Source of the DNA: Clostridia bacterium
GTDB taxonomy: Bacteria; Bacillota; Clostridia; TANB77; CAG-508
Assembly (NCBI GenBank): GCA_017536685.1
Contig: JAFXGW010000011.1
Span: 25,958-89,957, forward strand
Direction: 5' to 3'
Length of the DNA: 64,000 nucleotides
Positions 16,550 through 17,765 of this stretch are shown here, piece after piece (within the stretch, counting starts at the first letter, position 1; every line of letters starts with the position of its first letter). A program made the position numbers and the translations under genes. Under the pieces are notes generated by a model. The model made no database searches. It had not been told where the DNA came from and saw only the letters and a list, made by a program, of their open reading frames with translations.

Positions 16550-16680
16550 AAAATTCTCCTTATTACTTTTTAATTTTTATATCATTGTTTTGTTAATTTT
16601 TTGTGAATTATTAACGTATTATAAATTATATCATATATTTAAAATGTTGTAATCATCTTTTTTGTAAATATACAAGAAAA

Positions 16681-16725
16681 CCTTGCACAGCAGATTACTG
16701 CATTATGCAAGGTTTCTTATTCTTC
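16681..16725 (-). terminator. hairpin terminator at the edge of the GC-rich islet
   Basis: ccttgcataatgcagtaatctgctgtgcaagg on the minus strand, followed by TTTTCTTGT. Confidence 0.45.
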
Positions 16726-16742
16726 ATCTTGAGGATGACCAA

Positions 16743-17648
16743 TCACTTAAGATTTTCGAGTTTTTTCATTGTAGCACAGCATGCCTTTCTGTTGATGTCA
16801 CAGAATACGCCTTTTCTTCCCAGCCGTTTAGCAACAACAGCGGTTGTTCCTCCACCCATAAAAAAGTCTGCAACCGTATCCCCTTCATTACTGCAGGTAG
16901 AGATGATTCTTTCCAACACCGCATCCGGTTTCGGAGTATCGTATACCTCAGCGACATCAGTCCTGGTGTAATCATCCAGCATGCAATCTTCATACCAGAG
17001 ATTTCCAACAGGAACAACAGTGCTGAATCGATATGGCAACCCGTTAATGATTTGCACCTGATTCTTCTTAACCATATCATCAAACTGCTTCTGGCTGATA
17101 AGCCAATGTTTGTTTCTCTTCTCCAGATTGATTTCTTCGCCATTGAAAATTCTGATTTCAGAACGGCCTTCGAGATAGCCGTTTTCAAAAAGTGGAACTA
17201 CTCTTGGAGAAGTTCCGTGCTGTTCTTTGAAAACAAAGTTTCCAGAATCCTTCACGTAGTAAAGGATGATGTCCACTTGAGAATCAAAGTTTGCATAGAA
17301 TCCTCTTTCCGCACTATGCTTTCTGTAGATTCTGTTTCTGAAGTTTCTCTCTCCAAAAATTTCATCCATCAGAATTCGCATATAGGAATCCAGGCGCCAA
17401 TTGCAATGAATGAAAATCGAACCATTGTCTGCTAAGACTCTCTTCATTTCCTCAAAGCGAGGTCTGTACCATTCCATAGCTTCTTTCGGCGAACCAAGGT
17501 TGTCACTGTAATCATCAAACACTTTTCCTGTGTTATAAAGGATGTCACAGTAGATAAGGTTTATGCTACGATCAGGAAGCCTCCGTAAAAGCTCAATGTT
17601 GTCCTCTTGGTAGATTTTTATTCCACCATCTTGATAATATAGGCTCAT
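16743..17648 (-). CDS. beta-class (YhdJ-like) N6-adenine/N4-cytosine DNA methyltransferase, solitary, with variant catalytic motif
   Basis: Start moved to ATG with RBS AAAGGGG, reading MSLYYQ. N-terminal IKIYQEDNIELLRRLPDRSINLIYCDILYNTGKVFD aligns to YhdJ [34 protein letters not shown]. C-terminal SAM motif FFMGGGTTAVVAKRLGRKGVFCDIN. G+C is clearly higher than in the neighbours. Confidence 0.8.
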   Translation of the reverse strand: MSLYYQDGGIKIYQEDNIELLRRLPDRSINLIYCDILYNTGKVFDDYSDNLGSPKEAMEWYRPRFEEMKRVLADNGSIFIHCNWRLDSYMRILMDEIFGERNFRNRIYRKHSAERGFYANFDSQVDIILYYVKDSGNFVFKEQHGTSPRVVPLFENGYLEGRSEIRIFNGEEINLEKRNKHWLISQKQFDDMVKKNQVQIINGLPYRFSTVVPVGNLWYEDCMLDDYTRTDVAEVYDTPKPDAVLERIISTCSNEGDTVADFFMGGGTTAVVAKRLGRKGVFCDINRKACCATMKKLENLK

Positions 17649-17765
17649 ATTATAACCCCTTTCCATATGTGATTGTTTTTATGTTAACTTTTGGTCATTT
17701 TTAGTATACTATATTTTTTCTTGTTTTTCAAGTATTTAGCACTCTTCACTTATTTATTCAAAACA

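Follow-up and report, generated by a model that had tools for sequence, protein, structure and literature searches.

Why does a gene for a DNA methyltransferase with a seemingly broken catalytic motif stand in a short GC-rich islet of an AT-rich genome? We analysed a 64,000-nucleotide stretch of Clostridia bacterium contig JAFXGW010000011.1 (the window), in which positions 16681-17670 encode a methyltransferase of the beta class whose motif IV, the site usually read as DPPY, is D-I-L-Y. The original prediction took the gene for a horizontally acquired orphan, possibly inactive or re-specialised. Two questions are thus joined at this locus: whether the protein still works, and whether its unusual composition marks a newcomer. 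With moderate confidence we read it as an active, solitary beta-class DNA amino-methyltransferase from an old and widespread proline-less clade, long resident at its site and with its composition held. That the gene is functional is very probable; that the protein is catalytically active on DNA is predicted from its conserved residues with less assurance.

Conservation of a motif IV without prolines

The islet holds one real gene, of 301 amino acids, on the minus strand. Its coding features are as follows.

16743..17648, minus strand: coding sequence, with its stop codon, for the beta-class amino-methyltransferase of 301 aa (open reading frame scan, PF01555 profile and alignment)
17535..17546, minus strand: motif IV, D35-I36-L37-Y38 in place of (D/N/S)-P-P-(Y/F/W) (HMMER alignment to the DPPY of M.BceJIV, 9c3u/8urk)
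17464..17478, minus strand: codons of A57-Y61, in the helix after the catalytic loop, with a clade-specific tyrosine swap (clade comparison)
16842..16865, minus strand: motif I, the S-adenosylmethionine (SAM)-binding FFMGGGTT, F262-T269, with D261 before it (alignment)

A database protein with 100% identity, P0001, bears the NCBI name 'site-specific DNA-methyltransferase [Clostridia bacterium]'. The protein of the window matched Pfam PF01555 (N6_N4_Mtase) over residues 29-292 with an E-value of 2e-39 (136.3 bits, against a gathering cutoff of 26.7). The AlphaFold2 model is confident (predicted local distance difference test, 90.2), and its top Foldseek matches in the PDB were all beta-class DNA enzymes that form N6-methyladenine (m6A) or N4-methylcytosine (m4C), with E-values of 1e-15 to 1e-17; the best folds were those of Type III Mod, M.MboIIA, CcrM, M.BceJIV, M.RsrI and M.PvuII. 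Beta-class enzymes are defined by an N-terminal catalytic motif IV, a central recognition region and a C-terminal SAM motif I (PMC7544214), and the same order was found here, with motif IV at residues 35-38, a central recognition domain and motif I at residues 262-269. The FxGxG motif and its preceding acidic residue are intact (D261-F-F-M-G-G-G-T-T). From the motif IV consensus, (D/N/S)-P-P-(Y/F/W) (PMC7544214), the first and last residues are kept and both prolines are missing. A single beta-class gene with FFMGGGTT, and with D-I-L-Y for DPPY at exactly these codons, had been predicted, and both calls were borne out.

Comparison with solved structures gave the same picture. M.MboIIA (1G60), M.BceJIV (8URK/9C3U), CcrM (6PBD), M.RsrI (1EG2) and M.PvuII (1BOO) belong to the same Pfam family, have the same fold and motif order and, like our protein, keep FxGxG intact and have both Asp and Tyr in motif IV. 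However, identity to them is only 13-22%, and our protein has Ile-Leu for Pro-Pro and Tyr61 for M/L/I, and is without Tyr57 and Trp51. The best NCBIfam match (E 3.6e-27) was Escherichia coli YhdJ (NF008572), a solitary beta-class enzyme of similar size. The predicted likeness to YhdJ holds at the level of class, but the score of 95.2 bits lies below the equivalog cutoff of 292, with the match split in two stretches, so the protein is not a YhdJ orthologue. YhdJ itself has a canonical motif IV. Among PADLOC models the best match was MTase_III (E 1.7e-37), the Type III Mod family of EcoP15I and Mbo45V, with which the protein has in common a D-x-x-Y/F-N-T-G context after strand beta-4; it differs from the Mods in length (301 aa against 500-650 aa), in having no Res gene nearby and in a motif IV that is not Pro-Pro. 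CcrM and Dam, too, are solitary: they have no nuclease, and their lineages pass them on vertically and conserve them strongly. The CcrM profile (NF050803), however, matched only the C-terminal 65 residues (57.9 bits against a cutoff of 830), and the catalytic loop differs.

The loss of the prolines is not peculiar to this genome. Motif IV read DILY in 115 and DVLY in 3 of the 120 best database homologues (68-100% identity). Among the best 150 representatives of 50%-identity clusters, about 48 had a motif of the type D-[IVL]-[LI]-[YFW], against 88 with DPPF or DPPY. A neighbour-joining tree of 107 full-length sequences, built with the motif columns masked, placed a single change between Pro-Pro and non-Pro-Pro enzymes; D-[IV]-L-[YF] occurred in 40 of these 107 representatives, all in one clade. 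Asp35 was present in every one of the 40, and position 38 was Tyr or Phe. D49, G76, D126, Y131, Y236, K240, P241, D257, D261, G265, G267, R278 and D284 were as well conserved as in the Pro-Pro relatives, at 82-100% across the proline-less clade, with the SAM-binding residues among them (D261, G265, G267 and D284) kept in 82-95%. The ratio of non-synonymous to synonymous divergence (dN/dS) was 0.042 and 0.053 between the window and its two nearest orthologues, loci L003 and L013 respectively. DILY is therefore the hallmark of a clade under strong purifying selection and not a product of decay, and the idea of a possibly inactive enzyme lost ground on each of these counts. The family is large, conserved and uncharacterised, in gut bacteria and phages; the anticipated refutation, that DILY homologues would prove widespread, characterised and active, came true as to their spread, whereas no characterised member was found.

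The Pro-Pro of motif IV has been held near-universal for methylation of exocyclic amino groups, and it is built into recognition signatures. A large bacterial and phage clade with neither proline implies that the prolines are dispensable if compensated, or that these enzymes do something else. At present, annotation by signature and classification by motif would miss or mislabel them. Erm and KsgA rRNA adenine methylases (N-I-P-Y or N-L-P-Y) are active with an aliphatic residue at position 2 of the motif; they differ in keeping the second proline, in their RNA substrate, and in class and topology.

Four positions near the loop set the clade apart from its Pro-Pro relatives.

Position 34: Cys in 31 of 40 proline-less representatives; I/L/T in Pro-Pro relatives
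Position 51: K/L in the proline-less clade; Trp/Phe in Pro-Pro relatives
Position 57: A/I/V in the proline-less clade; Tyr in 57 of 65 Pro-Pro relatives
Position 61: Tyr in 40 of 40 proline-less representatives; M/L/I in Pro-Pro relatives

The Jensen-Shannon values between the two groups were 0.94 for position 57 and 1.00 for position 61. Both positions lie in a helix (residues 54-71) of the AlphaFold2 model, and we infer that their swap may be a compensated rebuilding of loop support, with the helix packing on the motif IV loop. A role for Cys34 as a nucleophile of the C5 type was considered and rejected, as the residue is conserved in only 31 of the 40, the others having Ser or Gly. Between subclades the central recognition region is variable.

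Motif IV does erode in non-catalytic partners of this fold: METTL14 has EPPL and the ciliate protein MTA9 has NALW, in which both prolines are gone (PMC7544214). By analogy, our protein might be a catalytically dead, methyltransferase-like DNA-binding or regulatory subunit, and a second PF01555 gene beside the DILY gene in some phages, and in 3-4 of 39 IMG/VR loci, would suit such a role. However, METTL14 and MTA9 have lost the first or last catalytic residue and need an active partner, whereas here the Asp, the Tyr/Phe and the full SAM-binding apparatus are conserved, and no partner methylase lies nearby in most phage loci and in all the bacterial loci examined. A lone dead methylase would also be hard to account for in phage genomes, and we give this explanation only a slim chance.

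The phage loci deserve description in their own right. The proline-less motif was read in Geobacillus virus E3 GP89, in Polaribacter phage P12002L and in Flavobacterium Muminvirus phages, and DILY, DILF or DVLY was present in 36 of the best 80 IMG/VR loci. Cellulophaga phi12 phages matched at a similar level, with the motif not read, and the Campylobacter phage matches carry the canonical motif. No Pro-Pro-type methylase was found within 3 kb in 35 of 39 viral loci, and the idea of a heterodimer partner was set aside on the rarity of such neighbours. In two loci, of Polaribacter and Flavobacterium phages (L060:1173-1329 and L061:1113-1329), a second annotated PF01555 gene directly follows the DILY methylase, a pairing that is rare in the IMG/VR loci.

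In bacteria the gene likewise stands by itself. In the window it is flanked on one side by genes for a DHHW protein and an MBOAT protein; its other neighbours encode an AI-2E transporter, Cthe_2159, desulfoferrodoxin and patatin. No restriction enzyme, Res or integrase was present among the Pfam-annotated neighbours at the locus, a search that a novel nuclease would escape, and no meaningful repeats flank the islet; the prediction of an orphan free of endonuclease, integrase and flanking repeats thus stood within that scope. Judged by Pfam-annotated neighbours, at least seven bacterial contexts showed no endonuclease, integrase or conserved partner. Elsewhere the family lies between NAD kinase and TadA, near dnaX-ybaB-recR; adjoining SecA and DUF1980; after isochorismatase, downstream of iPGM; beside a hexapeptide transferase; or beside a GH25 lysozyme. 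On three contigs from one study (L010:8001-9539, also L011 and L012) a 512-aa fusion joins a YfbR-like HD domain, of deoxynucleotidase type, to the DILY methyltransferase.

That fusion bears on a further explanation, in which the enzyme is re-specialised in its substrate or chemistry, acting for instance on a base in RNA, a protein amide, or a DNA base that is unusual or already modified. The loop change is clade-wide and coupled to other changes close to the active site. The protein is very strongly conserved from host to host (68% identity or more for the 120 best matches), as would be expected of a fixed cellular target, and members of this fold have been mis-assigned before, HemK having turned out to be a protein glutamine methylase (PMC7544214). 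Against this, subclades differ in their recognition region, as sequence-specific DNA enzymes do, phages carry the clade in abundance, the structural neighbours are all DNA enzymes, and no conserved partner or RNA-related neighbour recurs across contexts. Re-specialisation of this kind is in our judgement quite unlikely.

For the active DNA amino-methyltransferase that we favour, a mechanism can be proposed. The first residue of motif IV abstracts a proton and the last stacks on the base (PMC7544214). SAM would be bound through the intact FxGxG and Asp motifs and the target base flipped; its exocyclic amino group would be held by Asp35 and the main-chain carbonyl of residue 36, with Tyr38 stacked on the base. 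The rigidity of the two prolines would be replaced by repacking on the next helix, through the gain of Tyr61, the loss of Tyr57 and Trp51, and Cys34. Either m6A or m4C would result, in a sequence set by the central recognition domain. As no cognate nuclease was found and conservation in the host lineage is high, the host enzyme is probably an epigenetic or housekeeping-type orphan methylase; in phages the family probably supplies an anti-restriction methylase.

Residence of the gene in its slot

We then asked how long the gene has been where it is. The order MBOAT-DHHW-methyltransferase-AI-2E recurs in independent assemblies (L001-4, L013-20 and L035), across which the methyltransferase falls from 100% to 77% identity and the flanking proteins are 54-96% identical. 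The promoter, the leader and both 3' hairpins are conserved in these syntenic relatives; the remaining spacer is not. Non-synonymous divergence (dN) of the gene follows that of the flanks, and the ranking of methyltransferase identities agrees with the host tree (MBOAT plus DHHW). Synonymous change was followed as memory, that is, composition-corrected identity at four-fold sites, and compared between the gene and its flanks.

Window against L003: gene 0.60, flanks 0.61
Window against L020: gene 0.36, flanks 0.43
Window against L013: gene 0.29, flanks 0.32
Window against L015: gene 0.16, flanks 0.23
Window against L017: gene 0.20, flanks 0.08

Shared synteny, matched four-fold memory and the host-tree ranking together indicate that the gene was at this site before the species group diverged. 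We therefore regard it, in all likelihood, as a long-standing vertical resident of the slot between the DHHW and AI-2E genes.

These data bear directly on recent horizontal acquisition from a donor of about 42% GC, with too little time since to drift towards the host. The codon usage is that of a moderate-GC Firmicute, the compositional edges are sharp, and the slot is variable in that one relative holds another GC-rich gene there and another has a pilin/sortase insertion. However, the gene sits in the same slot, with the same promoter and leader, where the flanks are synonymously saturated; its four-fold divergence equals theirs in every pair, and its dN moves in step with theirs. There are no mobility genes or repeats at the locus, and instead of a pattern of presence and absence we found the gene at the same site in all close relatives, replaced only in L065. 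From the predicted horizontal acquisition, the foreign-looking composition and codons stand, and the recency that it implied does not. Taken with the composition required of the ancestor (below), a recent arrival is very improbable.

A different possibility is recurrent replacement of the allele by homologous recombination from GC-richer relatives, with no selection on GC. Loci L022, L024 and L026 (6001-6903) carry the signature of an imported allele: there the four-fold memory of the gene is 0.11-0.32 against 0.54-0.67 for the flanks, and the methylase is 87-96% identical among near-identical flanks (97-100%). The gene being more diverged than its flanks, these loci suggest allele replacement in that clade; some part of the family, then, does exchange alleles. 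In the clade of the window, by contrast, the gene is never more diverged than the flanks, and identities track the host tree. The syntenic relatives seen are all 23-28% GC, which leaves no known GC-rich donor whose flanks match, and the nearest homologues from other contexts (about 70-74% protein identity) are too distant for homologous exchange. We consider such replacement unlikely as the source of the composition seen in the window.

The variable slot and the allele replacement elsewhere make an ancient horizontal origin of the methylase quite plausible. The variability has two instances. Relative L065, nested within the carrier clade in the host tree, has no methyltransferase in the slot and holds instead a 394-aa gene (L065:6153-7337, minus strand; also in L066), on the strand opposite to the methyltransferase, with a GC content of 0.53 and 0.70 at third codon positions (GC3). 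It carries a ribosome-binding site of its own, together with a bidirectional terminator rich in G/C; it matched no family in Pfam or PHROG, nor did any homologue appear among 5.8 billion proteins. In L017, the most distant carrier, two SpaA/Cna_B pilin-like genes and a sortase lie between the methylase and the AI-2E transporter (L017:7082-12059).

Composition of the islet

The GC content of positions 16681-17670 is 40.9% (0.409), against a mean of 26.1% (standard deviation 0.024, maximum 33.1%) for 6102 other windows of 990 nt, not overlapping it, elsewhere in the 64-kb stretch; this gives a z-score of 6.2. The gene has a GC content of 0.41 and a GC3 of 0.43, against a GC3 of 0.087-0.174 in the 29 other genes of the window. 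Codon usage looks foreign: ATC makes up 59% of Ile codons (host 3%) and CAG 50% of Gln codons (host 4%), choices that resemble those of a Firmicute of 40-45% GC. The predicted islet of about 1 kb, and its atypical codon usage, thus persisted when measured against the flanks. Its edges are sharp, GC in 40-nt steps going from 0.17 to 0.40 near 16680 and from 0.33 to 0.20 near 17680, and GC3 is uniform along the coding sequence. The GC-rich part comprises only the coding sequence and the G/C-stemmed terminator; the 5' untranslated region (GC 0.26) and the promoter region (0.19) are host-like.

The excess has been kept across divergence. In five lineages the gene had a GC3 of 0.39-0.43, while that of its flanks was 0.09-0.13. 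At synonymous third positions we expressed the memory of G/C (S) versus A/T (W) state as the correlation phi, which in the flanks was 0.39 against L003, 0.21 against L020 and 0.05 (interval -0.01 to 0.12) against L013; between the window and L003 the memory of the gene exceeded that of the flanks (0.62 versus 0.39). Under a two-state model one rate governs both loss of memory and decay of a compositional excess, and a neutral foreign gene should therefore have shed most of its excess. To reach the present 0.40-0.43 by neutral decay, the gene would have had to start from a GC3 of 0.86-0.98 or more (from the upper confidence bound of flank memory), or above 1 by the point estimates, and the richest family member that we saw, in a GC-rich host, has 0.59. 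The data reject recency and passive non-amelioration as the source of the present composition. It is probably being actively held at a GC3 of about 0.4, rather than being the fading scar of a recent transfer.

A hand fit of memory and composition gave W-to-S change about 2.4 times faster, and S-to-W change about 3 times slower, than in the flanks; if the model holds, both rate shifts would follow from one fixation bias towards G/C with a scaled value of about 2. An attempt to polarise these changes by parsimony gave absurd flank equilibria (0.74-1.0); parsimony being biased, it was dropped for the memory statistics. In independent contexts the excess recurs: GC3 was 0.39-0.44 against 0.15-0.17 in L022, L024, L026 and L039, 0.26 against 0.14 in L005, and 0.33-0.37 against about 0.08 at flank synonymous sites in L028 and L029. 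A group of 'Bacilli' metagenome-assembled genomes (0.19-0.22 against 0.20) and the GC-rich host showed no excess.

What force would hold the composition? Candidates are selection for host-rare codons that limit the dose of methylase, selection on properties of the messenger RNA, and gene conversion tied to recombination at the locus. Regional biased gene conversion is weakened by the finding that the excess ends at the coding sequence and terminator, with promoter and leader host-like. A 'mutational equilibrium' of a gene with low expression was rejected, as the intergenic DNA of the window has a GC content of 15-19% and GC3 stays at or below 0.174 in all 29 other genes. Avoidance or enrichment of a motif, such as the enzyme's own target or a toxin cleavage site, was likewise rejected: synonymous-shuffle k-mer tests in seven orthologues gave weak depletion of ATTA, CTAA and TTAA, and the enriched 6-mers were merely conserved positions. 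The idea that an antisense gene makes the sense strand GC-rich was also discarded, the codon-aligned 250-aa antisense reading frame being broken in L003, L035, L015 and L017.

One bolder combination joins both halves of the problem. D-[IV]-L-[YF] enzymes would form a mechanistically distinct branch, with a loop rebuilt around Tyr61 that serves another atom, base or geometry, and the coding sequence would be kept GC-rich by synonymous selection, for example by rare-codon throttling of a dose-sensitive methylase. Such throttling in an AT-rich host would mirror the TTA/bldA gating of high-GC Streptomyces. We regard this as a minor possibility beside the active, long-resident DNA methyltransferase with held composition that we prefer.

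Several points weigh against that preference, in addition to the exchanged alleles of L022, L024 and L026. On the side of the protein, the structural role proposed for Tyr57 and Tyr61 comes from sequence and secondary structure, and no study that characterises a member of the clade turned up when the literature was searched for DILY or for a motif IV lacking its prolines. A preprint that classifies enzymes from REBASE has only rare variants such as NLPY, whose significance it leaves undetermined, and METTL14 and MTA9, both non-catalytic partners, are the only natural departures from the motif IV consensus in this fold that could be cited (PMC7544214). Type III Mods that form m4C also have DPPY/F, and DPPY/F enzymes yield m6A or m4C (PMC8259958), so the Asp cannot tell the two products apart. 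On the side of composition, the argument is that of a two-state stationary model with the flanking genes as its clock, and the GC3 of the gene is lower in two lineages (0.25 in L015 and 0.33 in L035).

Atypical composition is usually taken as a sign of recent transfer. Here the gene and its neighbours have diverged together until their synonymous sites were saturated, yet its foreign composition has not converged on that of the host. The case warns against dating transfers by composition alone and, confined as it is to one gene, is a clean one in which to test for selection or biased conversion acting on bacterial GC.

Transcription unit and overlapping reading frames

The islet is a single self-contained transcription unit with its own putative sigma-70-type promoter, leader, coding sequence and terminator. 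The parts outside the coding sequence, together with the longest antisense frame, are as follows.

17703..17731, minus strand: promoter, TTGAAA-17 nt-TATACT, conserved in 7/7 syntenic orthologous loci
17704-17709, minus strand: GTATAC, overlapping the -10 box
17649..17702, minus strand: 5' leader, 54 nt, GC 0.26, nearly invariant across the syntenic clade
17683-17688, minus strand: GTTAAC, in the leader
17656-17662, minus strand: AAAGGGG ribosome-binding site, in the leader
16668..16742, minus strand: 3' untranslated region, a small hairpin, then a strong intrinsic terminator, then a U-rich tail
16724-16738, minus strand: small 5-bp hairpin directly after the stop, kept in orthologues via compensatory changes
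16678-16715, minus strand: terminator hairpin (arms 16678-16687 and 16706-16715), retained in orthologues
16683..17435, plus strand: antisense reading frame of 250 aa, a by-product of the scarcity of TTA/CTA/TCA in the sense frame and not a gene

The whole open reading frame spans 16743..17666 on the minus strand. Its start was assigned to the ATG at 17648 (MSLYY...) because the conserved AAAGGGG ribosome-binding site precedes it and homologues begin there; the alternative in-frame ATG at 17666 falls within the ribosome-binding site.

The near-invariance of the leader region (17649-17709), unlike the unconserved spacer DNA next to it, was followed up. It has no stable fold, and no Rfam match was found at E-values up to 1, which excluded a structured RNA or known RNA family. 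GTATAC and GTTAAC were also considered as a target or restriction site and rejected, their counts in the window being ordinary (8 against 8.4 and 8 against 12.8 expected); both are missing upstream of family members in other contexts.

The 3' region folds with -28.7 kcal/mol (z-score -5.4), and the hairpin predicted near 16681 corresponds to the terminator arms. In the small hairpin, the compensatory changes lead from TCATC/GATGA in the window to TGTCTT/AAGACA in L015.

Overlapping reading frames on both strands, predicted to be spurious, do exist in the islet, and the label is right because the 250-aa antisense frame is unconserved in orthologues. In the window at large (positions 1-64000, about 26% GC) the minus strand carries nearly all long reading frames, with a negative GC skew from end to end, consistent with a position within one replichore of a genome with strong gene-strand bias.

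Two small features of the coding sequence were recorded as well. The codons for L-L-R-R-L at 17576-17590 (minus strand) include the rare Arg pair CGG-AGG, which makes a Shine-Dalgarno-like GGAGG string. The 6-mers ACGGAG and CCGTAA are retained in 7/7 orthologues amid otherwise fast synonymous change.

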